Shown here: piece by piece, positions 12,116 to 61,736 of the stretch
Layout: each line of letters opens with the position of its first letter
Position numbering within the stretch: position 1 is the first letter of the stretch
NCBI GenBank assembly: GCA_042577985.1
Contig: JBHPDI010000001.1
Coordinates: 2,334 to 66,333 of the forward strand
From: Halobacteriota archaeon
GTDB lineage: Archaea; Halobacteriota; UBA148
Reading direction: 5' to 3'
Length of the DNA: 64,000 nt
The notes under the pieces: model-generated
Database searches by the model: none
Told to the model about the DNA's origin: nothing
What the model saw: only the letters and a program-made list of their open reading frames with translations
Program-made: the position numbers and the translations under genes

Positions 12116-13120
12116 ATGATAGGAATGGTCCTTTGCGGTGGTCATGGCAAACGTCTTCGACCTTTTACGTCCGAGATGCCAAAATCACTTATCGAAATCA
12201 AGGAAGGATATACAATTCTGGATAATCAGCTATTATGCTTCTTATCTGCCGGAATCGATCAAGTTGTTTTGTTGACAGGTTATCTGAGCGAAAAAATCAT
12301 CGAGAGGTACGGTTCAGAATACAAAGGGGTGAAAATCGATTACATCGTAGAGGACGAACCTCTTGGAACCCTGAATGCCATAAAAATGGGTCTTGCCTCT
12401 GTGGAAGATGATGTGGTGATTATGAACGGTGATGTCGTTGCAGATCTAAATTTGAAAAAGATGATCACTACTTTTCAAAATTCCGAATTCATTGCAACTA
12501 TGTTCGTCACGAAAATGAAGAGCCCTTACGGAGTAGTAGTTCTTGGTGAGAATAATATCCAGTCTTTCAGGGAGAAGCCCTTTTTAAATCACTACATAAA
12601 TGGCGGCATATATTGTTTTAAAAAAGGTTGTTCTTCATACTTTGATGAATTTGAAATTGGCGATATAGAGAAAACTATATTTCCAATACTGGCGGATTCA
12701 GGCAAACTTGGTTATTATAAAGAAGACGACATGTTTTGGATATCTCTTGATACGACAAAGGACATAGAGGAGGCAAAAAAAGAGTATTCCAATAGAAAAG
12801 ACAAGCCATGGGGTTACGAGAAGATTCTAATCTCTACTGATAAGTATTTGACCAAGGAATTGTTCATTAAAGAAGGTTATAAAACATCATATCATTATCA
12901 CGAGCAAAAGGACGAAACCATGTTTATAATGGCTGGCTCAGGTTACATTAAATTTGAGGATAGAAAAGAGCGCTTTGGTCGGAACGATGCTATTCGAATA
13001 AAACCAAATACATCTCACACAATAGTAGCTTCGGAGAACACAATAATTCATGAGGTATCCACTCCAGATTTAGAGGATACTGTCAGGTTAAAGGATTTTT
13101 ACATTAGGTGGAATACATGA
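12116..13120 (+). CDS. Sugar-phosphate nucleotidyltransferase with C-terminal cupin (mannose-6-phosphate isomerase-like) domain
   Basis: 334 aa. The N-terminus [15 protein letters not shown] is the G-x-G-x-R NTP-transferase signature. The C-terminal [20 protein letters not shown] is cupin-like. Confidence 0.65.
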
Positions 13121-14418
13121 AAAGAATATCTGTTATCGGAATGGGCTTTGTCGGCTTAGTTAGTGCAGCTTGCTTTGCCAATAAAGGTTTTGAAGTCATA
13201 GCATCCACCCATGACCCCCAGAAAGTCGAACAGATAAATGAAGGTAAGGCGCCTTTTTATGAGAAGGACCTGAACCATATTTTGGTGGAGTCTGTGAAAA
13301 AAGGTAATTTAAAGGCTATTGTAGGGAGAAAAGAAGCAATTATCAACTCTGATATCACGTTCATTGCTGTTGGAACGCCCAGTAAAAAAGACGGAGGCAT
13401 TGATCTTGGGTTTATCAAATCTTCTGCTAAAGAAATAGGAAAAGTTCTAAAGGATAAAGACCACCATCTATTTGTAGTAAAAAGCACCGTAGCCCCGGGT
13501 ACAACGGAAGAAATTGTCAAACCGATTATAGAAAAATATTCTGGTAAAAAAGTAGGATCAGACTTTGGGCTATGCATGAGCCCAGAGTTTTTGCGAGAAG
13601 GTAATGCAGTCTATGACACTATACACCCAGATCGAATTGTCATAGGTGAGAGCGATAAATCTGCAGGAGATACTCTGGAAGAATTCTATCGAGAGTTCTA
13701 TGGCGAGAATTGTTCTCCAATTCTAAGGATGAGCCTTGTCTCAGCAGAGATGGTCAAATACACCTCTAATGCACTTCTCTCCACAAAGATTTCCTTCGCA
13801 AATGAGATTGGCAACATCTGTAAAGAGTTTGGCATCGATGCCTATGAGGTCATGCGTGCCGTCGGTATGGATCACAGACTATCACCGCACTTCTTACGAG
13901 CAGGTGTTGGCTTTGGTGGTAGTTGCTTTCCAAAGGATGTGAAAGCGCTCATACATAAAGCAAAGGAAATTGGTTACGATCCGAATCTTCTAAAGGCCGT
14001 GATGAATGTTAATGAGGGGCAGCCGAAAAGAATGGTTAAACTTCTCGAAAAAAAGCTTCCGTCCTTAGAAGGCAAGAAGGTTGCTGTGTTGGGTCTTGCC
14101 TTTAAGAACGACACTGATGATATACGAGAGTCTAGAGCGATTCCAATAATAAAAATGTTGATGGATAAGAATGCCATAGTTTCTGCCTATGATCCTTTGG
14201 CGAACGAGAACATGCGCCCCATCTTTCCTGACGTCAAGTACTGTACTAGCGCTGAGGAGGCGCTCATAAACGCTGATGCTTGTTTGGTGGTTACAGAATG
14301 GGATGAGTTCAAAAAATTGAATCATGAATTTGACGTTATGGAAAAAAAAGTAGTCATCGATGGAAGGAAAGTCATCCTTCCCAGAGAGGACATAGATTAT
14401 GAAGGATTGTGTTGGTGA
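13108..14418 (+). CDS. Nucleotide-sugar dehydrogenase (UDP-glucose/GDP-mannose dehydrogenase family)
   Basis: 436 aa. Has the N-terminal Rossmann motif [18 protein letters not shown] and the catalytic [10 protein letters not shown]. The true start is probably the second Met (MKRIS). Confidence 0.8.
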
Positions 14419-15427
14419 TCAAATAAAAGTAATAGTTCCGGCCGCTGGTGTTGGCAAAAGACTATATCCTCATACACATACAAAACCAAAATCGATGGTT
14501 TCTGTGGCTGGCAAGCCGATCATCGGCCACATTCTCGATCGACTTATCGATATTCATGCTCAAGAACTAGTAATAGTCGTTGGATACATGAAAGACAAGA
14601 CCATCTCATACATCGATGAGAATTATTCCTCTTGTTTTGGAAAAATTTCATATGTTACTCAAGATAAACCACTTGGTTTGGGCCACTCCATATATGTCAC
14701 GAAGGATGTTATTGGTGACTCCCCCATAATGATAGCTCTTGGAGACATGATCTTCCAGGGAGGCTATGGAGAGTTTTTAGAGCGTCATGAAAAAAATGGT
14801 GAATGCTCAGGATCAATTGGTGTCAAAATTGTTGACATGCCGCAATACTATGGTGTTGTATACATAGATGATGAAGGAAAGATAATCAAACTGGAGGAAA
14901 AACCAAAGCTATCGACTTCTAATCTTGGCATCGCTGGCGTCTACATCATAGATGATACCCCCTTATTCTTTAAATCGCTAGACAAACTGATCGGCGATAA
15001 TCCCAAAAAAGAGGGAGAATATCAACTTACCGATGCCTTACAAATCATGGTAGATGCAGGTGCAATGCTAAAAAAGTTTCATGTGCATGACTGGTATGAT
15101 TGTGGTAGGGCGGATACTTTGTTGGAAGTAAATCGATTGCTCTTGGCCCAAGCCCCAATAAAGACAATACGCTCTACAAATTCCATCATAATTCAGCCAG
15201 TAGCTGTTGGAGATGGTGCGGAAATCATCAACTCCGTAATCGGTCCAGATGTGTCTATCGCTGACGATACAGTTGTCAAAAATTCTATCATTTCTGATAG
15301 TATTGTAGGCTCTGGTGCAAAGATAATGAATATGAATCTCCAGACCAGTATACTTGGGGACTCTGTAAATCTAGCCGGCAAACCAAATACGCTCAATATA
15401 GGGGACTCTTCAACAATAGAGTTCTAG
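14399..15427 (+). CDS. NDP-sugar pyrophosphorylase with C-terminal left-handed beta-helix
   Basis: 342 aa. Has VPAAGVGKRLYP (NTP-transferase motif) and hexapeptide-like C-terminal repeats. Confidence 0.6.
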   Translation: MKDCVGDQIKVIVPAAGVGKRLYPHTHTKPKSMVSVAGKPIIGHILDRLIDIHAQELVIVVGYMKDKTISYIDENYSSCFGKISYVTQDKPLGLGHSIYVTKDVIGDSPIMIALGDMIFQGGYGEFLERHEKNGECSGSIGVKIVDMPQYYGVVYIDDEGKIIKLEEKPKLSTSNLGIAGVYIIDDTPLFFKSLDKLIGDNPKKEGEYQLTDALQIMVDAGAMLKKFHVHDWYDCGRADTLLEVNRLLLAQAPIKTIRSTNSIIIQPVAVGDGAEIINSVIGPDVSIADDTVVKNSIISDSIVGSGAKIMNMNLQTSILGDSVNLAGKPNTLNIGDSSTIEF

Positions 15428-15526
15428 GTTTTGGTAACTCTTCAGGGCTTACTTCTAAAAATCTTTGGGTGTTAACTTCAAGGGCTTTTAATGTGCTAAT
15501 ATACCAAAGTAATATATGGTGGGAGT

Positions 15527-15608
15527 TTGCACCTAAAGTAGGGAAAAAGCCCGACTTTAGGGTCAAAAATCATACTTTAGGGTCAAAACGGACTTTAGGT
15601 GCAAAGTC
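15527..15608. promoter_or_regulatory. Array of four copies of ACTTTAGG[GT][GT]CAAA (one inverted at 15527-15540; direct copies at 15554-15568, 15574-15588 and 15592-15606, ~20 bp apart)
   Basis: Read directly. It sits in a 425-bp spacer upstream of the UXS gene. The motif AAAGTCGTT recurs at ~15683. Confidence 0.5.
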
Positions 15609-15852
15609 GTTCTTAGTTGCGCTAAAGAAGATTATAATATATTTTGAGTATTATCCAATCTAAAACTAATTGATTTGGATGTAGGGGGGAAAAGTCGTTT
15701 ATAGTACACATGATATAGTTGGGGGATACAATCTAAAATCGAGAGATTCAATTCATGCTGCATGAGTAATAGGAAAAATGTAATAAAAATTATGTAGTTG
15801 ACATTGATTTTTATAGGTGAAATGGATTAAGATTTTGAAACTTTGATAACAA

Positions 15853-16827
15853 GTGGTGAATAAGATGAAAACGGTACTTGTAACTGGTGGAGCAGGATTC
15901 ATAGGCTCGCATCTATGTGAAAAACTGCTGGTAGAAGGTAATAAAGTCCTTTGTCTTGATAATTTGTCTACTGGAAATGAGAACAATATTCAACACCTGC
16001 TGAGTGATGCTAGGTTCGATTACATAAAGCAAGATATAATCAAGCCATTGAAAATTACGGACAAAATCGACAATATTTTCCATCTGGCAAGTCCTGCTAG
16101 TCCAGTTGATTATCAACGATTGCCTATAGAGACATTGTTAACTGGCTCATCAGGCACTCATAATGCATTGGATTTTGCCAGAGAAAAAGGGGCAGTATTC
16201 TTGCTAGCATCAACATCTGAGGTTTATGGTGATCCAGGTATTCATCCACAGCGGGAAGATTATTGGGGCAACGTAAACCCAATCGGTTTAAGAAGTTGTT
16301 ATGACGAGGCCAAGAGGTTTGCCGAAGCTTTAACTATGGCTTATCATCGTAAACATGATATTGATGTGCGAATCGTTCGGATATTTAACACTTATGGGCA
16401 AAGGATGGGAAGGGACGACGGTAGAGCTATTCCTAACTTCATAACTCAGGCTATGGCCAATGAACCAATTACTGTATACGGTGACGGCTCTCAAACGAGA
16501 AGTTTTTGTTACATCTCTGACATGGTGGATGGAATATATAAGGCGATGATCTCAAACGGGATGAGAGGTGAAGTAGTAAATCTGGGCAATCCGGGTGAGA
16601 TAACAGTACTGGAATTGGCTGAGAGAATCAAGAGAATCACCAACTCACGTTCGAAGATTGTATTTAAGAAATTGCCCGAGGATGATCCAAAACAGAGGCG
16701 TCCAGATGCATCTAAGGCAAAAGAAATCTTGGGCTGGGAGCCTATGGTAGATCTAGAGGAAGGATTAGTTAGAACAATAATATGGTTTGAAGAAAATCTT
16801 GAAAAGGTTATATCAGGGCATTTATAA
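15853..16827 (+). CDS. UDP-glucuronate decarboxylase (UDP-xylose synthase, UXS-type SDR)
   Basis: 324 aa. [20 protein letters not shown] and the segment [32 protein letters not shown] are characteristic of UXS/ArnA-decarboxylase-type enzymes. Confidence 0.75.
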
Positions 16828-16873
16828 TGAGTAAGAACAAGAGCAGAAAACATACCTATAGTAAGGTAAAAAT

Positions 16874-17116
16874 ATGGTGGCGGTATCTTAAGCAAAAATT
16901 ACTTCTAAAGTTCAAATTAATTCCCCAAAGGATATCAGATAGAAATATAATCTGTATGAAGGCGATAACGTTCTTCTGACCCTAACAGAAGACGAAATCA
17001 TCATGAAACACGGAATAGGTATCATTAGATTGTTGTGGAGACTCATAAAAAAAGAGGTGGCTGTGGACAAAGCATTGTATTTCTTCAAAAAACTGCGGCA
17101 GGAACGGAGAATATAG
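16874..17116 (+). pseudogene. AbrB/SpoVT-like small regulator or antitoxin gene interrupted by in-frame TAA (16889) and TAG (16940)
   Basis: The frame translates MVAVS*AKITSKVQINSPKDIR*KYNLYEGDNVLLTLTEDEIIMKHGIGIIRLLWRLIKKEVAVDKALYFFKKLRQERRI. The segment ITSKVQI-SPKDIR-x-KYNLYEGDNV fits the AbrB swapped-hairpin consensus and resembles the N-terminus of the PhoU-like protein at 5065. It is not in the ORF track because of the stop codons. Confidence 0.45.
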
Positions 17117-17280
17117 ATGTTGTATACTGCGGATTATATGGTGGTGTTAGCATATTTTGTAGATAAGATGCCGGAAAATACTGAGAAAATTTTCAGGATT
17201 GTATAAGAAGAGTTGAAGATAAAGAAGGGATACTAAAATATTGGGTTGGCAAAAGGCAATATTCAAGATAAGAAAGGATA

Positions 17281-17319
17281 AATGGTGCTAAAGAATGGTG
17301 CTAAAGAATGGTGCTAAAG
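17281..17319 (+). repeat. 13-bp tandem repeat (aatggtgctaaag) x3 ending 7 nt before the flippase start codon
   Basis: Read directly. Each unit carries an ATG. Confidence 0.85.
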
Positions 17320-17326
17320 AGCGATA

Positions 17327-18886
17327 ATGGAAGAAACATATTCATACTTGAATGAATCACTGAAAAAGGTAGTAAAAGGCGCGGGATTCGGCTTTATAGG
17401 TGCAATTATAGGAAGAGTTTTTGGATATCTCACAAGAATAGTTTTAGCCAGATCCCTCGGCGCAGATTATTACGGTTTACTAAATCTCGGACTTGCGAGT
17501 TTTAGTATAGTGGCCGTTATTGCAGCTTTTGGGTTGGGAAGTGGAATCATAAGGTATGTTTCATATTATAAGGGCAAAGGAGAAGAAGGAAAAATCAAAG
17601 GCACAATCTATTCCGCTTTGAAAATAAATCTTCCAGTAGCTTTAGCTTTTACATATCTTCTATATTCAGGTTCAGATTGGCTCGCTATTCACATATTTCA
17701 CGACCCAACTCTTTCTTCCGTCTTAAAAATATTCTCTTTTGCCCTCCCCTTCTCAATTTTGGCTGAGAACTTTATTTCAGCAACGATAGGATTTCAATAT
17801 TTGAGATATAGGATTTATGTTCATGATGTCTCAGAAAATGCAATTAGGTTTATTGTGATTGCCATATTGCTTTCGTTAGGTTTTGGCCTATTAGGTGCAG
17901 CATGGGGTTGGTGCATATCGATCATGATAACACCTTTTTTAGCATTTTATTTCCTTGAAAAAAGAGTATTTTCAATTCTCAAAACAAAAACAAAGTCTTA
18001 CCCGTTGGGAAAAGAGCTTTTCTCTTTCTCCTGGCCTCTACTCCTCGGTAGCTTTTCAGGTTTGGTATTGGGATGGTCAGATACACTCATGCTTGGATAT
18101 TTTGCAACGTCTTCTGATGTGGGAATATACAATGCGGCTTTACCTACAGCCATGTTAGTACTAACAATCCCTAGTATCTTTGGGATTATTTTTATGCCAG
18201 TCGTCTCAGAACTCTTCTCTCGTGGAAGATATGACGATATTAGGGATATATACAGTATTGTGACGAAGTGGATACTTTCTTTAATCATACCTGCATTTCT
18301 TTTAATGGTCTTATTTGCTCCTTCTGTGCTAAGAATAATTTTTGGTACAGAATATGCTGGAGGAGCATCAGCTTTAGTACTATTAACCAGTGGATACCTA
18401 TTAGTTTCTTTATTTGGTCTAACTGCTTCAATACTTGAGGCATACGGTCGAACGAAGATAATAATGGGCTGCACGTTCTTTGCCGCAGCGTTAAATTTTA
18501 TTTTAAATCTATATTTAATTCCCATCTATGGAATAACAGGTGCAGCTCTTGCTACAGGGTCATCACTTGCTATTTTTGGTATTATTCAATTTTTATTCGT
18601 GTATCGAATAGCAAAAATGCAGCCTTTCCGATTCAACTATTTAAAACCAGTTCTCACATCTATTTTCGCTGTTTTAATCGTTTATGGAATAACAAAATAT
18701 TTCATGGAGGTAACGTTTTTTGGTTTGATTGGGATGCTATTTGCATTTATCGTTATTTACTTTTTCCTGCTTTTGCTTGTAAAAGGATTTGAGGAGGAAG
18801 ACCTGATGATAATGAGAACTATTGATGAAAAATTGGGAACAAAAACAGATTTACCTAGGAAAATAATCAAAATGTTCTTAAAATAG
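17327..18886 (+). CDS. Oligosaccharide flippase (MOP superfamily, Wzx/AglR-like polysaccharide biosynthesis protein)
   Basis: 519 aa with ~12-14 TM helices and the Gly-rich pattern typical of Wzx flippases. Confidence 0.7.
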   Translation: MEETYSYLNESLKKVVKGAGFGFIGAIIGRVFGYLTRIVLARSLGADYYGLLNLGLASFSIVAVIAAFGLGSGIIRYVSYYKGKGEEGKIKGTIYSALKINLPVALAFTYLLYSGSDWLAIHIFHDPTLSSVLKIFSFALPFSILAENFISATIGFQYLRYRIYVHDVSENAIRFIVIAILLSLGFGLLGAAWGWCISIMITPFLAFYFLEKRVFSILKTKTKSYPLGKELFSFSWPLLLGSFSGLVLGWSDTLMLGYFATSSDVGIYNAALPTAMLVLTIPSIFGIIFMPVVSELFSRGRYDDIRDIYSIVTKWILSLIIPAFLLMVLFAPSVLRIIFGTEYAGGASALVLLTSGYLLVSLFGLTASILEAYGRTKIIMGCTFFAAALNFILNLYLIPIYGITGAALATGSSLAIFGIIQFLFVYRIAKMQPFRFNYLKPVLTSIFAVLIVYGITKYFMEVTFFGLIGMLFAFIVIYFFLLLLVKGFEEEDLMIMRTIDEKLGTKTDLPRKIIKMFLK

Positions 18887-19005: not shown

Positions 19006-20427
19006 ATGAAAATAGCATTAGTTAACGTATTGGACGTTCCAGAGGTACCTCCTATGGGACTGGCATATATCGCCACTTATCTAAGAGAATACGGGAGTTT
19101 TGAAAATACTAAAATAATAGATGCAAATGTAGAGAACGTTTGGGATGGAATTAAAATATATAAACCAGATGTCATTGCAATATCTTCCATGACAATTACC
19201 TATAGTACAGCGATAGAATTGGCAAAAAGAATTAAACAAGAGCAGGACGTTCCTTGTATAATTGGCGGCCCTCATATATCCACCTTACCCTCCTCTCTAT
19301 CTAAGGATTTTGATATGGGTGTTATTGGGGAAGGGGAACAAACAATACTTGAACTTATTCAGTTGTATGATAAAGATAAAGAGTTCAGAAAAGAGAAGTT
19401 AAAAGATATAGGGGGACTTGCCTATCACAATAATGGTAAAGTTAGCTTAACTAAAAAAAGGGATTTAATTCAGCCTTTAGATAAAATTCCTATTCCAGAT
19501 AGGAAATTTCTTGATCCGTCATACTTCAACGAAAAAAGAGTTTTTTTTACTGATAGAATTGGACGAGAAGCCCACATGCTCACTCTTAGGGGATGTCCAT
19601 ACCGTTGCATTTTTTGCTCTACTTCGGCGTTATGGCAAAATGTCACTAGGTACCATTCCGTAGAACACATATGTAGTGAAGTGAATGAACTTATTGATAA
19701 ATATAAAGTCAATGCTATCCAGATTTGGGATGATACTTTCACGATAAATAAAAAGAGATTACAAGAGATATCAGAGGCATTCAAAAAGGAGAAGATAAAC
19801 GAAAAAGTAGAATTTTCTTGCCAACCTAGAGCGAACTTAGTTGATGACAACCTATGTGAAATATTAAAAAACATAGGTGTTACTACAGTGAGCTTTGGCT
19901 TCGAGAGCGGAAGTGATAAAGTTCTTAATTATCTAAAAGCAGGATCGGTTACTGTTGAGCAAAATAAAACTGCTATAAAAACATGTAAAAAACACGGTCT
20001 CAATGTGTTTGGAAGCCTTATGTTTGGAAGTCCTGGTGAGACCTTAGAAGATATCAGACAAACATTAGATTTAATTGACTTCATGGGAGATAATTATGTG
20101 GACTTAATATGGGCTTTTATATCAACTCCATTTCCATCGACTGAATTCTGGGAAGTCGCTAAATCGCGGGGTAAAGTAAATGATGAAGAAATGGATTGGA
20201 ACACCCTAAGCCATAGCTATGCGAAAAATCCCTTTTTATTAGATGATTCTGTGGATAGAGCCGAATTTAAAAGGCTTTTTGAGGAAGCCAAACAAAGAAT
20301 CTATGTATCTTTTGAGAGAAAATATTGGCATCATTCCCTAGGCTGGATGCTAAAACAAGGCATAGTCAATCCAAAAAGAGGATTTGAGGTTTTACTAAAG
20401 ATTCTTAAATTAAAAACTAGTTATTAA
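19006..20427 (+). CDS. Cobalamin-binding radical SAM enzyme (class B)
   Basis: 473 aa. Has the N-terminal B12-binding Rossmann fold (IALVNV...DVIAISSMTITY...IIGGPH) and the radical SAM core RGCPYRCIFCS. Confidence 0.75.
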   Translation: MKIALVNVLDVPEVPPMGLAYIATYLREYGSFENTKIIDANVENVWDGIKIYKPDVIAISSMTITYSTAIELAKRIKQEQDVPCIIGGPHISTLPSSLSKDFDMGVIGEGEQTILELIQLYDKDKEFRKEKLKDIGGLAYHNNGKVSLTKKRDLIQPLDKIPIPDRKFLDPSYFNEKRVFFTDRIGREAHMLTLRGCPYRCIFCSTSALWQNVTRYHSVEHICSEVNELIDKYKVNAIQIWDDTFTINKKRLQEISEAFKKEKINEKVEFSCQPRANLVDDNLCEILKNIGVTTVSFGFESGSDKVLNYLKAGSVTVEQNKTAIKTCKKHGLNVFGSLMFGSPGETLEDIRQTLDLIDFMGDNYVDLIWAFISTPFPSTEFWEVAKSRGKVNDEEMDWNTLSHSYAKNPFLLDDSVDRAEFKRLFEEAKQRIYVSFERKYWHHSLGWMLKQGIVNPKRGFEVLLKILKLKTSY

Positions 20428-22858: not shown

Positions 22859-22871
22859 GACGGGTGTTAAT

Positions 22872-23741: not shown

Positions 23742-23745
23742 AAGG

Positions 23746-26027: not shown

Positions 26028-26029
26028 CA

Positions 26030-46793: not shown

Positions 46794-46854
46794 TTTTGAC
46801 AAATTAAATATCACTGTTTGCCGAAAATAGTGCCAAAGTTTGTTTTATCTCACG

Positions 46855-47049: not shown

Positions 47050-47106
47050 TTTAAATATATGCAAAATTTAGTTACAATGGATGTAATATGGAGGTGAAAT
47101 ACATCT

Positions 47107-51459: not shown

Positions 51460-51479
51460 ATAGTTATCCTACCTATAAT

Positions 51480-52706: not shown

Positions 52707-52751
52707 TTTAAGGTCTCATAATCAAATTTGTTTTTGTTTCAATTTGTGTTA

Positions 52752-53801
52752 TCAATCTATTTTAACATATCTTGAAAGGATTTTATCTTCACTTGGATAA
52801 TTGGGAGCATCCCACGGGAATTTTTCCCCACTTTGCCATCTCCCCCATTTACTTAAATCTTCGTTTACCATTTCCTCCACAAGCTCGTCAAATTTCACCT
52901 TAGGCTCCCAACCTAATTTCTTCTTTGCCTTTGAATAATCCCCTTGTAAGAAGTTGACATCCAAAGGTCTTTTGAATCTTTCGTCAATTTTAACATATTT
53001 TTGCCAATCTAAACCAACAATATCAAATGCTTTTTCTGCAAATTCTTTTACACTATGGGATTCATTCGTTGCCACTACGTAATCCTCTGGTTCTTTTTGC
53101 TGAAGCATAAGCCACATGGATTTAACATAGTCTGGTGCGTAGCCCCAGTCCCTCTTTGCTTCTAAGTTGCCTAATTTTAATTCCTTTTCTATTCCAAGAT
53201 CAATCTTTGCAACAGCGTTGGAAATTTTTCTCGTTACGAATTCTAACCCTCTTAATGGGCTTTCATGATTGAATAAAATTCCATTACATGCGAAAATATT
53301 GTACCCCTCCCGATACTGCTTTGTTAGCCAGTACCCGTATAACTTTGCTGCAGCGTACGGGCTGGAGGGTTTAAAAGGTGAGTCCTCGTTTAAACTCGAT
53401 GAATGCCCTCTTCCATATAATTCGCTTGTGGAAGCCTGATAAAACTTTATTTCTGGGTCGATTTGTCTGATAGCTTCTAAAATCCTCGTCACACCCAAAC
53501 CTGTTATCTCCCCGGTTCCAATAGGTTGTTCAAAAGATGCACCTACAAAACTTTGCGCCGCGAGGTGATAAATTTCATCGGGTTCCGCAATTTTAATTGC
53601 CTCCACCATAGAACTTGCATCTACTAAATCCGCAGGTATCAACTTCACCCTCTCAAAGATGTCTAAGTATTGCAATCTCCAGAAGTTCGGTGTGGAAATT
53701 CTCCTGTAAATCCCATAAACTTCGTATCCTTTATCTAACAGAAATTCTGCAAGATATGCACCATCTTGACCTGTTATGCCTGTTATTAATGCCTTTTTCA
53801 T
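52752..53801 (-). CDS. gmd: GDP-mannose 4,6-dehydratase
   Basis: 349 aa. KALITGITGQDGAYLAEFLLDKGYEVYGI...HLAAQSFV...YAAAKLY closely matches Gmd. Confidence 0.85.
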   Translation of the reverse strand: MKKALITGITGQDGAYLAEFLLDKGYEVYGIYRRISTPNFWRLQYLDIFERVKLIPADLVDASSMVEAIKIAEPDEIYHLAAQSFVGASFEQPIGTGEITGLGVTRILEAIRQIDPEIKFYQASTSELYGRGHSSSLNEDSPFKPSSPYAAAKLYGYWLTKQYREGYNIFACNGILFNHESPLRGLEFVTRKISNAVAKIDLGIEKELKLGNLEAKRDWGYAPDYVKSMWLMLQQKEPEDYVVATNESHSVKEFAEKAFDIVGLDWQKYVKIDERFKRPLDVNFLQGDYSKAKKKLGWEPKVKFDELVEEMVNEDLSKWGRWQSGEKFPWDAPNYPSEDKILSRYVKID

Positions 53802-53951
53802 AATATCATCCTCTTTCCCATGCTTATATAAATATACAGCCTCTTATTACCAATATCTTTTAAAATGAAAATATTTTCAAAACATGTATCGAGTCGCCTA
53901 CGAATTCTCCATTGTGTGGAATAGGAATGTTAGGAGTGACGTAAATTATGT

Positions 53952-55082
53952 TCATAATAAATCCTCAATAACCTCTTGATATCTCTTTCCGATCACCATC
54001 CAATCAAAATTATCAATAACCCATTCTCTCGCTTTTTTCCCCATCTCTGTTTTTTTATCCCTGTTCATCAAAATCATTATTCTATCTGCCATCTCCTTCA
54101 CATTTCCCGGTTCAACCAAATATCCTGTTTCACCATTTTTTATCGTATCCAGCATGCCGCCTACTTTCGTCCCTATCACAGGTTTTTCACATGCCATTGC
54201 TTCTAAAACCACAATCCCATAAGGCTCTATTATACTTGGTTGAACGTAAATATCGCACTCTGAATATAAAAAAGGCATTTCATAGTTTGGAATGGGTTTT
54301 TCTAGAAACTCAACTTCTCCCTCTAAGCCAAGTCTTTTCACAAGATTTTTCAAATTCCTTTCTTCTGCTCCTCTCCCCAAGATGTATAGTTTTGCTTCTG
54401 ATGACTCTTGTAAGAGTTGCATCGCCTCTATTAGATAATTTAATCCTTTATATCTGTGCAATCTAGCAACCGTTAGAATCTTCAGTTTGCATGATGTGGA
54501 AAGCTGCCCCTTACCCTCCATTGGTCTGAACAATTTCGTGTCCACGCCAACATTTATTACTTTTATCTCTCTTTTTACTCCCAATTCTTTTATCATGAAT
54601 TCCTTGGCAGAATTACAGTGTGCAGTTATGACATCAACGCCATCTCTCACGATTTTGTTGACTGTTTTGTCAAAAGTTTTCAATAGAATCCTCTTTTTGA
54701 GATCCGTTGGATAATATGTTCTCTCCGTAGACAATATTGTAGGCGTTCGCTTTAACCTTGCTGCAAAGTAGGCGAGGTGACAGATGAATGGGTAGTCCTC
54801 TTGCAGGAGCACTACATCATAATCATTTTTGAGAATATGAGTAAAAACAGAAGGAACCATTGGATTTTCTCCTAAGTTCAAGGGTGTTGTGAAATATTTT
54901 ACCTTAAAATCGTAGGAATAAAAGTTGCAGTCTTTTCCTCTTATCATCACCTCTCTAGGGGCTTTCGCAGTGGAAGTGACAATCGTTACATCGTGTCCCA
55001 ACTTTGTGAGGCTCTGCGCAAGCCCATATTCGTTACCTCTAACAAAAGGTGTGAAAAATGGTACGACAATGCAGATTTTCAT
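53952..55082 (-). CDS. Glycosyltransferase family 4
   Basis: 376 aa with E-x7-E context (EPYGIVVLEAMACEKPVIGT). Confidence 0.75.
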   Translation of the reverse strand: MKICIVVPFFTPFVRGNEYGLAQSLTKLGHDVTIVTSTAKAPREVMIRGKDCNFYSYDFKVKYFTTPLNLGENPMVPSVFTHILKNDYDVVLLQEDYPFICHLAYFAARLKRTPTILSTERTYYPTDLKKRILLKTFDKTVNKIVRDGVDVITAHCNSAKEFMIKELGVKREIKVINVGVDTKLFRPMEGKGQLSTSCKLKILTVARLHRYKGLNYLIEAMQLLQESSEAKLYILGRGAEERNLKNLVKRLGLEGEVEFLEKPIPNYEMPFLYSECDIYVQPSIIEPYGIVVLEAMACEKPVIGTKVGGMLDTIKNGETGYLVEPGNVKEMADRIMILMNRDKKTEMGKKAREWVIDNFDWMVIGKRYQEVIEDLL

Positions 55083-56140
55083 CTTATTTCCTCATACACG
55101 TCAATCAAACGCTCTGTTACATTGTCCCAATCCACCAAATTTCCACCATATTTGCCTCGCTTGATAGTAGCCACGCGTTTTATCGTTTTGATAAGGTCAT
55201 TCACATTCGTAGGCGATTTAACCTCAAAGCACATTTTGTTATCCATGAACTCGATCAATGAGCCAATATCGGATATGATGCAGGGTGTTCCGCTTGCAAG
55301 AGCCTCTGCCACTGTTATACCATAGGCCTCATGCTCAGAAAGCATGACAAATACATCTGCGGATTTGTAATGTTGAAGTAACTCGTGTCTTGGGAGACCT
55401 CTTATCCAGTCAATCTTCTTGCTTGTGCCAAGATTATTTGCCATTTTTTTTAGTTTTTGCTCATAGGGTCCCTTCCCTACGATCTCTAATCGATGTTCCA
55501 ATAATGGCAACGCTTGGATGACATATTGAACACCTTTGTATTTCTCGAGGCGACCTACGAACAAGATGGTTTTATTCTTCCTTTCTATGGGTTTAACGTC
55601 CTTGAACTCATCTAAATTTATGCCATTGGGAATGTGAGTCAATTTGGATGCAGGAATATTGAAATTCTCTTTTATTAAATTCAGCTCAAACTGTGATACA
55701 CATACTATTTTGTCTGATTTTTTAAGTATTCTCGCTCCAAGCGGGCGATATGGTTTGTGGAGTTGATTTCGGATGAATGAGTGCCCTGCTCCATGATAAT
55801 GAGGTGTGAAAACTAATTTTCGATCCTTTTTGGCTAGGGCACAGAATAACGCTGGAAATGCGTGGTAATTGTGCGTATGAATTATGTCATATTCTCGATT
55901 TATGAGATAACTGTAAATCTGTGGTGCAAAGAAAAAGGCATCATTGGGTGCGATTGACCTAAATCTGGTGATTTTGACGCCATTTACTTTATCTTTTTTT
56001 TGTAGCTTACCAGACGGGTTGGTGCATATAACTTCAACATCCCATCCATTTTTTACTAGACGCTCACTCAACTCCTTTACATGCGTCTCCACTCCACCTA
56101 TGTCTGGATGGTATCTGGGGCAAACTTGGGCTATTTTCAT
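55079..56140 (-). CDS. Glycosyltransferase family 4
   Basis: 353 aa with EAYGITVAEALASGTPCIIS. Confidence 0.75.
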   Translation of the reverse strand: MKIAQVCPRYHPDIGGVETHVKELSERLVKNGWDVEVICTNPSGKLQKKDKVNGVKITRFRSIAPNDAFFFAPQIYSYLINREYDIIHTHNYHAFPALFCALAKKDRKLVFTPHYHGAGHSFIRNQLHKPYRPLGARILKKSDKIVCVSQFELNLIKENFNIPASKLTHIPNGINLDEFKDVKPIERKNKTILFVGRLEKYKGVQYVIQALPLLEHRLEIVGKGPYEQKLKKMANNLGTSKKIDWIRGLPRHELLQHYKSADVFVMLSEHEAYGITVAEALASGTPCIISDIGSLIEFMDNKMCFEVKSPTNVNDLIKTIKRVATIKRGKYGGNLVDWDNVTERLIDVYEEIR

Positions 56141-56563
56141 TTTATTATTTACTCCCTACCGACAATTCCGTCAAAGCAATTGAACTATTGTATTGGTTAC
56201 AAGCTCTGACATCTTTATCTTTTCACATGGAGTGAAATATGCCTCCTTCCAACTTGGACGTTATTTTATATTTGTCCTCCATGAATCCAATAATCGCATC
56301 GGAAGCAGATTCTAATTTTTTCAAAAGCTTCTAATGCGTCTGATTTTATATATTTCTTGGATTACATCCTTATGGATCTTATCGCATCTCTGGACATCAG
56401 ATATATCTTTTATCTTTTTTTTTTTTATCCCTTAACATTTTAAGTATTTTGCATCTTTCTTAATTTTCAAAGCATTGGACATATTTGAGATTGTTATGGA
56501 CTAACCAATTGTTCATTATTCCAGAACTATTTATAAATCCTTACTACTTTATTACTTGTTACG

Positions 56564-57721
56564 ATGAGAAGTATATGTATCGTTGGGCCGTCGAAACGAT
56601 TTTTAAGTGGGATTAGTTATTATACTATTCGCTTGGCTAACGCATTGGCAATGTCAAATAATGTGTCAGTTGTCTGTTTGAGAAAATTATTGCCCCAATT
56701 TTTGTTTCCGGGGCGAGATCACGTTGGAAAAAAGATATCAGATCTTGAATTCTCGCCTAACATCGCAGTTTATGATGGCATGGACTACAATTCGCCATTG
56801 AGCTGGATTAGGGCATTTCACTTTGTCAAAAATAAAAACCCTGATGTGATCATATTACAATGGTGGACATCTTCTGTAGCACACATGCACCTTGTTTTAA
56901 AGGTGTTAAATGCGCTTTTGCTTAAATCAAAGTTTATAGTCGAGTTTCATGAGGTTGTAGATCCCTTGGAGGAGGCTATTTTGCCTATTAGGTTGTATTC
57001 ACGTGTATTTGGTCGTTTATTAACTCATAAAGCAGATGCATATATCGTACACTCCAGTTTTGACAAGAAGCAGATCGCATCCAAATATCACCTCGGTGAA
57101 GGGGAAATGTACATCATTCCACATGGACTTTATGATCATTATAAACCAATTGATGGGGGGAAAGCTAAATCTGCACTAAAGATCAAGGAGAAATTCGTCA
57201 TTTTGCACTTTGGATTGATCAGGAGATATAAAGGCATTCCATACCTCATCGATGCGTTCGAACGAATGCCAGAAGACGTGGCGAAGGACGCAAGATTGCT
57301 TATCGTGGGGGAGCTCTGGGAGGGCGGAGAGGATATAGTCCAGAGGGTTGCAAACTCAAAGCGCGCGGGTCAGATAACGTTGATACCAAAATACGTCTCT
57401 GATAGTGATCTCCCGCTATATTTTTCAGCAGCGGATGTTATCGTTTTTCCCTACACAAGGGCATCACAGAGTGGTGCAGCCCATATAGCAATGTGCTTTA
57501 AAAAGCCAATAATAGCTTCTAAGGTCGGGGGATTGAAGGAATCCATGTCAAAATATGAAGGAACATCTTTCGTTCCACCAGGCGATGCAAATGCGATTGC
57601 AAAAGCACTCATAACCTGCTATGAGGAGCCGAAAGAAATCAAATGTAATTTAGCAGAGTTTAGCTGGAATACAATCACATCCAAGTACTTTGATGTAATA
57701 GATAGAATCAGCAATAAATAA
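56564..57721 (+). CDS. Glycosyltransferase family 4
   Basis: 385 aa with a GT-B C-terminal domain. Confidence 0.6.
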   Translation: MRSICIVGPSKRFLSGISYYTIRLANALAMSNNVSVVCLRKLLPQFLFPGRDHVGKKISDLEFSPNIAVYDGMDYNSPLSWIRAFHFVKNKNPDVIILQWWTSSVAHMHLVLKVLNALLLKSKFIVEFHEVVDPLEEAILPIRLYSRVFGRLLTHKADAYIVHSSFDKKQIASKYHLGEGEMYIIPHGLYDHYKPIDGGKAKSALKIKEKFVILHFGLIRRYKGIPYLIDAFERMPEDVAKDARLLIVGELWEGGEDIVQRVANSKRAGQITLIPKYVSDSDLPLYFSAADVIVFPYTRASQSGAAHIAMCFKKPIIASKVGGLKESMSKYEGTSFVPPGDANAIAKALITCYEEPKEIKCNLAEFSWNTITSKYFDVIDRISNK

Positions 57722-57788
57722 CCCTTCAAAAGATTTATGTGAGATGTGATACTGTGTTTAATGCTTAAAGTGATGGAGAAGATGACCG

Positions 57789-60464
57789 TTGGGCAATAAA
57801 AAAAGAAAAAAGAAGTCTAGGGCGAAACCCAAAGCAGCGAAGAAAGAGGTACTAAAGATAACAAAAAGAGAAGCCGAGATCACACAGCTTCGCTCATCAC
57901 TAGAAAATTTTGAGAAGGAATATGAGCAAGGTAAGATCTCCAAGGCAGCATATGAAAAACTTAAGGCAGAGTATGAGGATGATGTTAAGAGGATTGAACA
58001 TATCTCATTTTTTGAGAAGATCCGGCAGAAAATATCGATTTATACCTTATTGTTAATCACCATAGTTTCTCTCGCTTTCTACATTAGGGCCGTTTTACCA
58101 TATGATAACGTGTTCCTTGAAGACATGGTTCGATTTGGTGGAAATGACCCTTGGTATCACATGCGTCTCATAGAAAACACTATTCGTAATTTTCCCAACA
58201 GGATTTTTTTCGACCCATACACTCAATTTCCAGTCGGCGAAGTTCTCCATTTTGGACCACTGTACGATCAAATGGTTTCTTTAATTGCCTTACTCGTTGG
58301 GTTGGGGTCGCCCAGTCTGCATACCATAGAGGTTATAGGAGCCTATTTCCCAGCAGTTCTAGGAGCATTGGTCGTTTTACCTGTCTACTTCATTGGGAAG
58401 GTAGTATTCGATAGGCGAGTAGGCCTGTTATCTGCACTTGTCGTTGCTATCCTGCCAGGACAATTCTTATCACGATCGCTCTTGGGATTCACAGATCACC
58501 ATGTTGCAGAGACACTTTTTAGCACTCTGACGATTTTGTTTTTCATGATAGCGATGAGAAGGGCAGAGGGTATAAAGTTCGAGCATGTATTGAAGAAAGA
58601 GTGGCATATCTTGAGGGCCCCGCTGGCGTATTCAATATTAGCCGGGCTTATGTTTGGGTGCTATCTGCTATGTTGGTATGGGGCTTTGTTGTTTGCATTC
58701 ATAATTGCCGTATTCGTCATCATTCAGCACATCATTGACTATCTACAGAACAAATCAACTGACTACCTGTGCATCGTTGGTGGAATCACATTTGTGATCC
58801 CACTGATAATTGTCGCACCAATTGTTATTCAAGGTCTTGGTCAGTATTCATGGTTACACATATTTTCATTCATTATAGGTATCTTGGCGTTTTTATTATT
58901 AAGCGGCATCCCCAAGGTAATGGGCAGTAAGGACATCGATCGGATTTATTATCCGGTGATTTTAATCGGAATTGGCTCGATAGGTGTAGCAAGCGTTTAT
59001 CTGATTAATCCCTCTCTTTTCCACTCGATGTTGAGCTCGTTTGGCATATTCTGGCCGGAGGGGGGCATATTAACCGTCGCAGAGGCGACATCGATCTTTT
59101 ATAGAGGCGGTCAGTTTTCCTTACAGTGGGTATGGGATAACTTTACGGCGTGCTTTTATGCTACTCTCATCGCTCTTTTGATGGTCGGATATAGAATCTT
59201 TAAAGAACGGAAGCCAGAGGACACATTGCTAGGGGTATGGAGCATCATCATGTTCCTTGCAATCGTTGGACAGAACAGGTTTGCATACTACTTCGTGGTG
59301 AATGTCGCAATTCTCTCTGGATATTTCGGCGTCAAAATGTTGGAATGGGGTGGCTTGGGTAAATTGTATGAGGACTTCCAAAGAAGGGTGAAGGACTCTA
59401 GCGATATTGGTTATTTCGTTTCCAGATATGTAAAACTAGTTCACATATTTGTCGTGGTACTGGTTGTTTTGATTCTCATATATCCTAATGTCAACATAAC
59501 GATGGGATCGGGCCCAGGTGCAGCAAGGTGGACTGGTGGGCCCAGTATGGACTGGTACTCTGCCTTGGACTGGATGAGATATAATACACCTGATCCTGGC
59601 CTTGACTATTATGAGCTCTACGAAGCACCTGCACATGGAGAGACATACCAATACCCCGAATCTGCCTACGGCGTGATGAGCTGGTGGGACTATGGTCACT
59701 GGATCACCAGAATAGCGCACAGGATACCGAATGCTAATCCATTTCAGTCAGGCATAGGCGGTCCCATAGGAAGTGATAATCCAGGAGCTTGCGTTTTTTT
59801 CATCTCAAAAACTGAAGCTGAAGCAAATGAAGTTGCCGACGAGCTTGGTGTGAAATACGTAATAAGTGACTTCATGATGGCTGACGTATGGAACGCATTT
59901 TATAACAAGTTTGGGGCGATGACCGTTTGGGCTGGCGATATTGAGGGATATTATGTACAAGTTAATGATACGGGGGAAGGACCCAGACTTATACCTAGCC
60001 CCAAATATTTCAGCACAATGGAAGCCAGATTGCACATATTTGATGGCACAGGAGTACAACTTAGTGAAGACATCTATCTGGAGCCTTTACATCATTATAG
60101 GCTTGTCCATGAGTCTCCTAGCACTATAATCTCTATAGGTGGGCAAGAAGTAAAGTTTGTCAAGATTTTTGAATATGTTCCTGGGGCGAAGATAGTTGGA
60201 AGTGCACCTGAAGGTACTAACGTTTTAATCAACGTTGAAATTCAGACCAATCAAGGTCGAACGTTCAGTTATACTCAAACTACAACTTCTAATGGAAGCT
60301 ATGAGTTCATAGTTCCGTACTCTACAGAGGGTCCTATGGTTGGTGGAACACAGTTTGGCACGATGCCAGTGGGACCATACACTATAATAATTGGAGATAT
60401 GATGGGGGAAGTTAGAGTCACAGAGGATCAAGTGATTACTGGAGAAACTATCCTGTTGACTTAG
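57789..60464 (+). CDS. aglB: Archaeal oligosaccharyltransferase AglB (STT3 family) with an unusual ~70-aa basic/helical N-terminal extension
   Basis: 891 aa. Has the WWDYGHWI catalytic motif, an early-loop DPWYH acidic motif, 13 TM helices and a C-terminal soluble domain. The N-terminus MGNKKRKKKSRAKPKAAKKEV...GKISKAAYEKLKAEY precedes TM1 with no internal Met. Confidence 0.85.
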   Translation: MGNKKRKKKSRAKPKAAKKEVLKITKREAEITQLRSSLENFEKEYEQGKISKAAYEKLKAEYEDDVKRIEHISFFEKIRQKISIYTLLLITIVSLAFYIRAVLPYDNVFLEDMVRFGGNDPWYHMRLIENTIRNFPNRIFFDPYTQFPVGEVLHFGPLYDQMVSLIALLVGLGSPSLHTIEVIGAYFPAVLGALVVLPVYFIGKVVFDRRVGLLSALVVAILPGQFLSRSLLGFTDHHVAETLFSTLTILFFMIAMRRAEGIKFEHVLKKEWHILRAPLAYSILAGLMFGCYLLCWYGALLFAFIIAVFVIIQHIIDYLQNKSTDYLCIVGGITFVIPLIIVAPIVIQGLGQYSWLHIFSFIIGILAFLLLSGIPKVMGSKDIDRIYYPVILIGIGSIGVASVYLINPSLFHSMLSSFGIFWPEGGILTVAEATSIFYRGGQFSLQWVWDNFTACFYATLIALLMVGYRIFKERKPEDTLLGVWSIIMFLAIVGQNRFAYYFVVNVAILSGYFGVKMLEWGGLGKLYEDFQRRVKDSSDIGYFVSRYVKLVHIFVVVLVVLILIYPNVNITMGSGPGAARWTGGPSMDWYSALDWMRYNTPDPGLDYYELYEAPAHGETYQYPESAYGVMSWWDYGHWITRIAHRIPNANPFQSGIGGPIGSDNPGACVFFISKTEAEANEVADELGVKYVISDFMMADVWNAFYNKFGAMTVWAGDIEGYYVQVNDTGEGPRLIPSPKYFSTMEARLHIFDGTGVQLSEDIYLEPLHHYRLVHESPSTIISIGGQEVKFVKIFEYVPGAKIVGSAPEGTNVLINVEIQTNQGRTFSYTQTTTSNGSYEFIVPYSTEGPMVGGTQFGTMPVGPYTIIIGDMMGEVRVTEDQVITGETILLT

Positions 60465-60836
60465 TTTGATTTATTTTTTTATATTATGCCTATTGTTATT
60501 CTATTCATTCTACGTATTTATTTATTCAGCACTTACCTTTTATTTTTTTTTAGATAATCCTCATTTTTGACAATATATCATTCAAAATATCTGAAATAGC
60601 CAGTCTTTTTAATGCAAAACATCTTGAAAGCTCAAAACACTCTTTGAATCAACAATTGTTGACGTATAATCCTTTTTAACATCTTGTTGATTGAGTTGAT
60701 AACTCAACGGGGGATTTTGATAATTAAATAGGCCAACTTGATAGAAAAACACACATAGCAAATCTTATATTAGGGTGATAGAAATGAGCAGTAAAGTGAA
60801 ATAATGGAAAATCAAGACATTTTAGGTGAACGTCAA

Positions 60837-61736
60837 ATGAGAGATAAAGTTTGCATCCTGATTCCAACACTCAACGAAGCAAATACAATAGGCGAAGTAG
60901 TCGAAGAGTTCAGTTCTATGGGATTTACAAACATCTTGGTGATTGATGGACATAGCACTGATGATACCATCAAAATAGCGAGGGAGAAGGGTGCTAAAGT
61001 TGTGACCCAGAAAGGAAAAGGCAAAGGTCAAGCTATTCAGCAATCATTTGATCTAATTGAGGAGGATATCATCGTGATGATCGACGGCGATGGGACTTAT
61101 CTTCCAGAAGAGGTGGATAGATTGCTAGCGCCGATCGAGAAAGGAACTGCTGATCATGTTATTGGAAACAGATTTGCAGAGCATAAGGGTGGGGCATTTA
61201 CAAAATTGAATCTATTCGGCAACCAAATTTTGAACAAATCATTTGGTCTTGCGTACGGTGCTTGGGTCACCGATATTTTGTCCGGATATAGGGCGTTCAC
61301 CAAGAAAGCAATCCAAGAATTAGAGCTGAATAAGACAGGATTTGAGACAGAGGCAGAGATCACCATAGAGAGCGTTAAAAAAGATTTGAGAATGGTGGAA
61401 GTGCCAATATCCTATTTATCTAGACATGAAAGAGCTGCAACAAAACTTCACCCTCTTAAGGATGGCTTTAGAATCGGAATCACCATATACAAGCTTACTA
61501 AAACGTACAATCCATTGTTATATTTTGGCCTGCTTGGGGCAGTTTTCATGGTGTTGGGCACTTGTGTAGGCTTCTACGTCGTACTAGAGTGGTTCAAAGG
61601 AATAACTCGCATTCCAATGACCATACTTGCCACTTTGCTGATCGTGATGGGTGTTCAAATGTTAATCTTCGGTCTTCTAAGTGATCTCCTCTCGTTATTC
61701 CACAAAGAATTGATGAGGGAGTTCAGAAGAAAGTAG
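60837..61736 (+). CDS. GT2 dolichyl-phosphate hexosyltransferase (AglJ/AglD/DPM1-like) with C-terminal TM helices
   Basis: Has VCILIPTLNEANTI...VIDGHSTDDT...DGDGTY and two C-terminal TM helices. The start was moved to MRDKV, in frame with the track ORF starting at 60804. Confidence 0.7.
   Translation: MRDKVCILIPTLNEANTIGEVVEEFSSMGFTNILVIDGHSTDDTIKIAREKGAKVVTQKGKGKGQAIQQSFDLIEEDIIVMIDGDGTYLPEEVDRLLAPIEKGTADHVIGNRFAEHKGGAFTKLNLFGNQILNKSFGLAYGAWVTDILSGYRAFTKKAIQELELNKTGFETEAEITIESVKKDLRMVEVPISYLSRHERAATKLHPLKDGFRIGITIYKLTKTYNPLLYFGLLGAVFMVLGTCVGFYVVLEWFKGITRIPMTILATLLIVMGVQMLIFGLLSDLLSLFHKELMREFRRK

Follow-up and report, generated by a model that had tools for sequence, protein, structure and literature searches.

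A glycan-gene locus around aglB in an uncultured archaeon with conserved ends and a variable, GC-poor center

Gene content and layout of the island

The 64,000-nucleotide (nt) window analyzed here comes from contig JBHPDI010000001.1 of a metagenome-assembled genome (MAG) labelled Halobacteriota archaeon (GCA_042577985.1), and its positions 12116 to 61736 hold an island of 42 back-to-back open reading frames (ORFs) that includes aglB, the predicted oligosaccharyltransferase gene. Nearly all of these ORFs encode nucleotide-sugar synthesis, glycosyltransfer, flipping, or oligosaccharyl transfer. An initial annotation, made from the letters alone, had claimed more than 40 consecutive glycan genes, and assignments via Pfam, NCBIfam, and PDB sequence searches bore out both this count and almost every function it had named. 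The total of 11 glycosyltransferases (GTs) was also correct, but they divide into five GT4 genes (starts at 20428, 45723, 53952, 55079, and 56564) and six GT2 genes (starts at 26003, 27004, 38225, 47107, 48100, and 60804) rather than six and five.

Comparison with 171 contigs or loci (numbered with an L below; window genes are numbered with a g) divided the island into three parts: a left module (12116 to 16833), a 37-kb center of 33 genes (16834 to 53871), and a right module (53872 to 61736). DNA breakpoints were placed via blastn and protein-level patterns via tblastn, with relatives visible only within ~10 kb of the anchor genes dnaG, aglB, or HddA. The island had been read as a mosaic of acquired cassettes throughout. 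This description suits the 37-kb center, but both end modules (~12.6 kb, including aglB) are syntenic with relatives, 80 to 93% identical to them, and native in composition.

The end modules

The left module consists of four plus-strand genes. Pfam and NCBIfam matches identified an NTP-transferase/cupin protein (12116 to 13120), a UDP-glucose 6-dehydrogenase of the AglM type (13108 to 14418), and a sugar-1-phosphate nucleotidyltransferase of the AglF/RmlA-long type (14399 to 15427). The fourth gene (15853 to 16827) encodes a homolog of the UDP-glucuronate decarboxylase UXS, assigned by its PDB match to human UXS1 (367 bits, E=5e-109, residues 5 to 318); none of the NCBIfam equivalog models searched matched it, and the dehydrogenase lies two genes upstream. 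Together, these genes are predicted to supply UDP-glucose, UDP-glucuronate, and UDP-xylose. Their products are 83 to 93% identical, with order kept, in L080 to L084, and their GC content at third codon positions (GC3) is 0.36 to 0.41.

The right module begins with two minus-strand GT4 genes (g48, 53952 to 55082, and 55079 to 56140), followed on the plus strand by a third GT4 gene (56564 to 57721), aglB (57789 to 60464), and a GT2 gene for an AglJ-type dolichol-phosphate glycosyltransferase (60804 to 61736). AglB is predicted to transfer oligosaccharide to Asn: it scored above the cut-offs of PF02516 (101 bits), PF22627 (111 bits), and PF18079 (90 bits), contains eleven hydrophobic segments, and carries WWDYG at residues 632 to 636, an instance of the catalytic motif WWDXG. 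The AglJ gene, 340 nt downstream of aglB, reached 445.8 bits against the AglJ equivalog TIGR04182 (cut-off, 325), and the three GT4 genes lie directly upstream of aglB. The same AglB-AglJ-GT4 arrangement was found in L001, L002, L003, L166, and L168. Right-module proteins keep their order and are 80 to 93% identical in L001, L166, and L008 and 62 to 81% identical in L002 and L003, and the GT4 encoded at 56564 is 57 to 60% identical to aglB-linked GT4s across Methanosarcina. An exact-protein look-up for g50 gave no record. A metagenome scan with AglB, which was saturated by the universal WWDYGHWI pattern, found no close relative, the best match being 46% identical.

Two further observations concern AglB. 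Its residues 1 to 80 (window 57789 to 58030) form a lysine-rich, coiled-coil-like extension ahead of the first membrane segment, kept in close relatives (alignments start at residues 1 to 13) but not in distant AglBs (alignments start at ~57 to 95). In addition, AglB homologs 37 to 46% identical to that of the window are encoded on over 20 contigs assigned to Dehalococcoidia/Chloroflexota bins, a number of them 120 to 200 kb long (L045, L049, L051, L054, L056, L059, L063 to L067, L069, L071 to L073, L076, L077, L079, and many metagenome loci). Several of these contigs also hold RmlA-long and RmlB proteins 53 to 59% identical to g18 and g21 of the window center, and a literature search pairing Dehalococcoidia with AglB turned up no paper.

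Sugar cassettes and transferases of the center

At its left edge, the center opens on the plus strand with a Wzx/MOP flippase recognized via Pfam (17327 to 18886), a B12-binding radical S-adenosylmethionine (SAM) enzyme (19006 to 20427), and a GT4 (20428 to 21633). The four plus-strand genes from 21797 to 26027 form a predicted NDP-3,6-dideoxyhexose cassette. Three of the four exceeded NCBIfam cut-offs, namely, the long-form RmlA (g18, 21797 to 22858; rmlA_long, 488.8 bits), the E1/RfbH-type 3-dehydrase (g20, 23746 to 25080; RfbH, 549.4 bits), and the RmlB 4,6-dehydratase (g21, 25080 to 26027; dTDP-glucose dehydratase, 459.2 bits), and the remaining gene encodes a short-chain dehydrogenase/reductase (SDR) of the reductase/epimerase kind (g19, 22833 to 23741). 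The 3-dehydrase matched PDB 3BCX at 385 bits and keeps both the active-site His ("YPAHHITMGEGG") and the Fe-S C..C...C of the Yersinia enzyme; in an RfbH search of representatives clustered at 50% identity, the best matches were at most 53% identical, and at most 48% over full length. That the g19 SDR and g20 RfbH work as a pair is supported by analogy with SDR-RfbH fusions elsewhere, which mirror the g19-g20 order.

Many homologs of the RfbH/E1-type 3-dehydrase (P0362 to P0390) are fused to an SDR, N- or C-terminally, and two carry inteins or LAGLIDADG domains. The FrhB-like flavoprotein described below was considered as a substitute for the E3 reductase, the usual partner of a 3-dehydrase, and this was unsupported: in the 10 fusion proteins scanned, RfbH occurred with SDR and never with an FrhB-like domain.

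Downstream on the plus strand are a GT2 (g22, 26003 to 27007), an AglJ-like GT2 (27004 to 27873), an FrhB-like Fe-S flavoprotein with two 4Fe-4S motifs (27870 to 29135), a soluble 543-amino-acid (aa) protein without a family match (g25, 29132 to 30763), and a second B12 radical SAM enzyme (30822 to 32354), followed on the minus strand by a flippase-like membrane protein (32434 to 33354). The interval from 26003 to 33354 is the most GC-poor of the island (GC3 of 0.22 to 0.29), with the FrhB-like/543-aa pair (27870 to 30763) at 0.22 to 0.26. An FrhB-like homolog, 37% identical, also occurs near aglB in Methanosarcina sp. T3 (L013).

A block from 33425 to 38976, whose proteins are 79 to 88% identical to those of L169, encodes a 14-transmembrane-segment protein on the plus strand (g28, 33461 to 35218) and, on the minus strand, a 9-transmembrane-segment protein (g29, 35241 to 36542), a fusion of a flippase-like domain to a methyltransferase (36566 to 38221), and a soluble GT2 of the polyprenol-phosphate-sugar synthase type (38225 to 38938). 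Both polytopic proteins were described by topology. Together with g25, they are the three center proteins without a family, as none had a Pfam, NCBIfam, or PDB match, and an AlphaFold single-sequence model of g29 had a predicted local distance difference test (pLDDT) score of 44. From topology, g28 and g29 might be guessed to be GT-C membrane transferases. Judging by domain types and topology, the genes at 33.4 to 38.9 kb may add a sugar outside the membrane, on the model of AglD/AglR/AglS of Haloferax.

Eight minus-strand genes (38958 to 45412), assigned via Pfam and NCBIfam, make up a predicted GDP-heptose cassette. In order of transcription, they encode a PfkB heptose-7-phosphate kinase-like protein, the N-terminal half of transketolase, its C-terminal half, HddC, HddA, GmhA, GmhB, and a transaldolase/FSA. 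GmhB scored 185.7 bits against a cut-off of 178. GmhA (196.5 versus 276), HddA (287.5 versus 600), and HddC (165.7 versus 300) fell below their NCBIfam equivalog cut-offs; these names were nonetheless the best named matches (E=4e-58, 1.6e-85, and 1e-48, respectively).

The rest of the center contains a GT4 (45723 to 46793) and a GT2 (47107 to 48096) on the plus strand, a further GT2 on the minus strand (48100 to 49080), and five minus-strand genes (49117 to 53801) that are predicted to form a GDP-sugar tailoring cassette for a GDP-amino/methyl-6-deoxyhexose. These five encode a methyltransferase (49117 to 49899), a DegT aminotransferase (49880 to 51061), a cupin (51058 to 51459), a sugar C-methyltransferase (51480 to 52706), and a GDP-mannose 4,6-dehydratase (52752 to 53801; gmd, 419.5 bits against a cut-off of 415).

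Synteny with relatives ends at two sharp breakpoints

By DnaG identity, the nearest relatives were MAGs labelled "Methanocellales archaeon" (82 to 85%), followed by "Methanosarcinales archaeon Met12/Met33H" (67%). On the left side, gene order in the DnaG contigs L080 to L085 is that of the window, running through AMMECR1, PHO4, PhoU, amidohydrolase, Toprim, DnaG, GNAT, UPF0146, NTP-transferase/cupin, UDP-glucose dehydrogenase, NTP-transferase, and UXS. DNA identity, which is 90 to 93% with L084 and 82 to 86% with L080, stops at 16833, six nt past the UXS stop codon. What follows in L080 and L084 is a second SDR gene and a gene for a 505-aa flippase. In the window, UXS is instead followed by a 499-nt spacer, which includes the AbrB-like pseudogene described below, and by a flippase with only 26% identity to the one at this position in L080 and L084. 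A search of the gap (16828 to 17326) for a remnant of the relatives' second SDR found none.

On the right side, the order GT4-GT4, then GT4-AglB-AglJ-PIN/ATPase, is common to L001, L002, L003, L008, L166, and L168. Identity to L001 and L166 (85 to 86%) begins at 53872, in the spacer between g47, the GDP-mannose dehydratase gene, and g48, the first GT4 gene. Left of the right module, the glycan genes of every relative differ from those of the window: L001 carries a GT4, a GT2, a GFO/IDH oxidoreductase, an unknown gene, and a GT4; L166 carries a GT4, a GT2, a GT4, and asparagine synthase-like genes; and L002 carries two GT4s, a GT2, and a methyltransferase. The center lacks homology at the matching positions in five relatives. 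When all window proteins were compared with the 171 loci via tblastn, g1 to g14 were 71 to 93% identical and g48 to g53 were 80 to 95% identical, and none of g15 to g47 had an orthologue in the corresponding stretches of relatives except the GT2 g22 (78% in L002).

The direction of change can be read at both edges. On the left, the window and L084 (90 to 93%) are closer to each other than L080 and L084 are (84 to 86%), yet it is L080 and L084 whose gene order agrees up to and including the second SDR and flippase. On the right, a ~400-aa GT4 stands beside g48 in L001, L166, L002, and L003, with decreasing identity, and is missing from the window. Because outgroup pairs share edge genes that the window lacks, the window center is the derived state. 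The simplest reading of these alignments is that the window lineage replaced its center at both edges after splitting from the nearest sequenced relative. Even between L001 and L166, which are 90 to 94% identical, 2 kb has been replaced, and a toxin-antitoxin insertion also sets the two apart.

The center differs from its flanks in base composition

Mean GC3 was 0.310 in the 33 center genes, 0.400 in nine end-module genes, and 0.407 in nine flank genes. The center differed from both the flanks and the end modules (Mann-Whitney, p=1e-5 for each), and end modules did not differ from the flanks (p=0.66). Dinucleotide distance to the flanks (delta*, x1000) was 60 for the center and 20 for the left module. 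A codon-usage log-likelihood score gave no discrimination, and GC3 and delta* were used instead. Within the center, sub-block GC ranges from 0.336 at 21.8 to 30.8 kb up to 0.377 in the heptose cassette. Relatives, too, have a low GC content in their variable stretches (0.345 to 0.377, versus 0.41 to 0.43). Because the center is both compositionally distinct and nonsyntenic across the relatives compared, the island is neither core-like in composition nor fully syntenic, the two features that the initial annotation had named as refuting a mosaic; this result applies to 16.8 to 53.9 kb only.

The same cassettes occur in other contexts

L169, L170, and L171 carry all eight heptose-cassette genes with their order unchanged and among different neighbors, and HddA homologs are 80 to 87% identical. 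In L170 and L171, DNA identity to the window (85 to 90%) spans 38977 to 45341, and the cassette is flanked there by GT4 genes and a methyltransferase. In L169, a longer stretch (33425 to 45635, 81 to 87%) is shared, which includes the GT2, the flippase-like/methyltransferase fusion, and both polytopic proteins (g28 to g31 were found only there); L169 has an extra radical SAM gene, and its other side is different. A third piece, the end of RmlB plus the GT2 (g21/g22, 25776 to 27009), matches Met33H (L002) at 81% identity, against only 73.6% for the Met33H aglB region.

Among ~15 billion proteins, nine of 10 sampled center proteins were singletons in 90% clusters, and the tenth was not in the collection; nine singletons out of 10 mean that no piece is a very recent import from a sequenced source. 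At 80 to 87% protein identity, the donors look like a gene pool of related archaea, and distant lineages are not indicated.

Strand switches, junction scars, and mobility signals

The alternating strand blocks of the initial annotation were as described, apart from the ORF at 33461 to 35218, which lies on the plus strand inside a supposed minus block. Strand junctions coincide with cassette junctions only in part. They do so at the g39/g40 switch, where breakpoints 45341 and 45635 lie, but the two main breakpoints, 16833 and 53872, fall within strand blocks. Breakpoint 33425 coincides with the g27/g28 strand switch, which had not been listed.

Decayed genes had been placed at two block junctions, 16874 and 46855. 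At the first, a plus-strand frame resembling an AbrB/MazE-like antitoxin (16876 to 17010) begins with an ATG at 16876, contains two in-frame stops, and lies ~40 nt from the 16833/16834 breakpoint. The resemblance is weak (Pfam PF04014, E=0.011; AbrB regulators in the PDB, E=0.004), and the position is inside the first plus block rather than at a strand junction. At the second, the 313-nt spacer (46794 to 47106) contains a 37-aa ORF and the stretch "VDLGCGTNKRADIGLD"; no match there was significant, including that of a methyltransferase-like motif, the position is again inside a plus block, and the decayed gene proposed here was not borne out. Searches of all spacers via tblastx and blastx against the loci and the window proteins found no remnants beyond conserved intergenic sequence.

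Toxin-antitoxin pairs also occur at joins of conserved agl genes in relatives: HEPN/MNT in L166 (8997 to 9873) and VapBC and PIN in L168 (7372 to 7994 and 332 to 2246). The AbrB-like scar at the left breakpoint of the window fits these insertions. Also at the left edge of the center, a perfect 13-nt tandem repeat (AATGGTGCTAAAG, 3.1 copies, 17281 to 17320) ends 6 nt ahead of the flippase start codon and could affect expression.

No integrase, transposase, or insertion sequence was found by Pfam among the scanned window ORFs, and no tRNA lies near the island. A repeat search for att repeats or recombination boxes at the junctions gave only chance-level matches.

Chromosomal context

The 5' end of the window contains the 3' part of an archaeal 23S rRNA, a tRNA-like match, 5S rRNA, and RNase P RNA, followed by housekeeping genes for AMMECR1, a PHO4 phosphate transporter, PhoU, a dihydroorotase-like amidohydrolase, two Toprim proteins including DnaG, GNAT, and UPF0146. 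Because of this rRNA and housekeeping content and its DnaG relatives, the window is chromosomal DNA of an uncultured archaeon. The tRNA-like match, a 122-nt Rfam hit (1721 to 1842) between 23S and 5S rRNA on which ARAGORN makes no call, is probably an intron-bearing tRNA.

Several differences from relatives lie in this flank. In dnaG (8324 to 9586), an in-frame 33-nt tandem repeat (9129 to 9257, 3.9 copies, 96% match) lengthens DnaG to 420 aa, compared to 387 to 388 aa in relatives. A pstSCAB-phoU phosphate-uptake operon, located between PHO4 and the PhoU/MazE gene in L080 to L081 (L080, 2660 to 6623), is found neither in the window (corresponding site, ~4.9 kb) nor in L084. Between UPF0146 and the island, a second small nonhomologous spot (10932 to 11980; GC of 0.27 to 0.30) is unrelated to the sequence there in L084 and L080 and contains two small membrane-protein ORFs on the minus strand (11177 to 11458 and 11455 to 11847).

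A probable explanation: inherited ends and a renewed center

The explanation favored here, and a probable one, is an aglB-based N-glycosylation locus with inherited, invariant ends and a center renewed by recombination of cassettes. The vertically inherited end modules would carry out the invariant steps, namely, formation of a lipid-linked core and transfer to Asn: AglJ would put the first sugar on dolichol phosphate and AglB would transfer the glycan, with three GT4s encoded alongside. The center would encode the variable, presumably distal, part of the glycan, using the flippase, eight further glycosyltransferases, two candidate membrane transferases, and three sugar cassettes, of which the heptose cassette may supply its own sedoheptulose-7-phosphate via transketolase and transaldolase. 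Homologous recombination, acting within the conserved end modules and from cassette to cassette, could bring about this renewal, drawing pieces from the shared gene pool of related archaea and giving each lineage a different surface glycan, with viruses or cell recognition as possible selective drivers.

Several points weigh against this explanation. The window stems from metagenome assembly, the interiors of the relatives' islands lie outside the ~10-kb view, and dnaG and aglB were seen on one contig in no relative. For L169 to L171, the proposed gene pool of related archaea is drawn from identity levels, and rarely expressed genes under weak selection can likewise become GC-poor. No AscD-type 2Fe-2S flavin reductase (E3) to partner the 3-dehydrase was found among the window ORFs, and to our knowledge no glycan structure has been determined for this lineage.

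A bolder version can be offered tentatively. The locus might be the serotype-switching device of an uncultured methanogen-related lineage, in which recombination carries self-sufficient sugar cassettes from one agl locus to another, with toxin-antitoxin scars left at the joins, and its N-glycan would combine heptose, xylose, and a 3,6-dideoxyhexose made without a canonical E3. If so, the cassette's own transketolase and transaldolase would let a recipient without a pentose-phosphate route make sedoheptulose-7-phosphate.

That the cluster genes build the glycan transferred by AglB is suggested by their co-location. Much of the center might instead build exopolysaccharide, capsule, or lipid or surface-layer (S-layer) O-glycans and merely sit beside aglB, a somewhat unlikely proposal that is compatible with the evolutionary account favored above. 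The Wzx-type flippase, the many GTs, and the FrhB-like and radical SAM genes are typical of polysaccharide loci, four nucleotide-sugar routes exceed the usual need of one short N-glycan, and four sugar pathways with at least 11 transferases could equally serve several glycoconjugates rather than the single, unusually complex glycan of the initial annotation. However, the center lies between AglJ/AglB and AglM/AglF-type genes, domain scans of the window detected no Wzy polymerase, chain-length regulator, or export genes, and aglB-based clusters of other archaea encode the N-glycan pathway (PMC5867893).

Other accounts dispute the origin of the center. Wholly vertical inheritance, with the center appearing foreign through fast evolution, differential loss, and drift to low GC, would suit the 80 to 87% identity of the heptose-cassette homologs, which resembles genus-level divergence, and the low GC common among glycan loci generally. 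It is nevertheless improbable, as identity falls from 90% to none within a few bases at intergenic points, genes at equivalent positions are nonorthologous (the flippase at 26% identity, the second SDR absent), the window departs from its closer relative L084 although L080 and L084, a more distant pair, agree with each other, and the same cassette stands among different neighbors in other contigs.

Slightly less probable still is that one mobile genomic island, for instance a provirus remnant or an integrative element, inserted a single time between the UXS and GT4 genes. The sharp edges, low GC, toxin-antitoxin-like pseudogene at the left edge, and toxin-antitoxin pairs at relatives' junctions would fit such an event, but no integrase or transposase, no tRNA target, and no direct or inverted repeats around the island were found, and in relatives the site is not empty but occupied by other glycan genes. 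Sub-blocks of the center also differ in GC (0.336 to 0.377) and in distribution, with the heptose cassette alone in L170/L171, a larger block in L169, and g21/g22 in L002.

The least likely account is an assembly artefact joining conserved modules to the glycan region of another population, since, despite the source being a 66.5-kb MAG contig, composition shifts at both joins, and nine of 10 sampled center proteins being singletons at 90% identity, it needs two joins, both exactly intergenic and with gene order and function still coherent, and independent assemblies of relatives share the design of conserved ends around a different GC-poor middle.

Comparison with known glycan loci

Recombination at bacterial O-antigen and capsule loci is anchored in the conserved genes that flank them. 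The locus described here resembles such loci (rfb of Escherichia coli/Salmonella, galF-gnd; pneumococcal cps, dexB-aliA) in having conserved flanks around a GC-poor center of cassettes, a Wzx flippase, RmlA/RmlB, an RfbH/E1 3,6-dideoxyhexose route, and GDP-sugar routes. It differs in that its glycan would presumably be built on dolichol phosphate and moved to Asn by AglB, where the bacterial products are ligated to lipid A or exported as capsule, and in that no Wzy, Wzz, or WaaL and no E3 (AscD/RfbI) reductase gene was detected in the window.

The GDP-D-glycero-alpha-D-manno-heptose pathway (GmhA, HddA, GmhB, and HddC) is known from the S-layer glycan of Aneurinibacillus. Candidates for all four enzyme types are encoded next to each other in the window, but its cassette adds a PfkB kinase resembling RfaE domain I, a split transketolase, and a transaldolase, and the eight-gene order is kept in four contigs.

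Among archaea, the closest parallel is with haloarchaeal aglB clusters, which likewise combine adjacent AglB and an AglJ equivalog with AglM/AglF-type UDP-glucuronate genes, many GT2 and GT4 genes, and a flippase. Content of the Haloferax clusters varies among close relatives and their GC is below that of the genome, features ascribed to horizontal gene transfer (HGT) (PMC5867893), as is inferred for the window; variable, low-GC, HGT-prone agl clusters therefore have a precedent (PMC5867893, PMC11407970). The species specificity of archaeal N-glycans has been stressed, and heptose has been reported in the N-glycan of Thermoplasma (PMC11407970). Unlike the Haloferax clusters, this locus comes from an uncultured "Halobacteriota/Methanocellales" MAG group, is much larger (42 genes), and has a clear three-part design with both ends fixed. 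Its predicted sugar set (UDP-xylose, 3,6-dideoxyhexose, heptose, and a C-methylated GDP-sugar) is also different, and no homing endonucleases were seen in the window.

Current understanding is unchanged by these results, variable, GC-poor, HGT-prone agl clusters having already been described, and the locus is an ordinary, well-resolved, large member of that known class. What it provides is a cleanly delimited archaeal case, outside the haloarchaea, of a design with fixed ends and a swappable middle, in which breakpoints can be placed to within a few bases and one cassette occurs in four different settings. For finding and comparing surface-glycan types in MAGs of this lineage, the end modules (AglM/AglF/UXS and GT4-GT4-GT4-AglB-AglJ) offer anchors, and the locus should be useful for predicting virus-host specificity.

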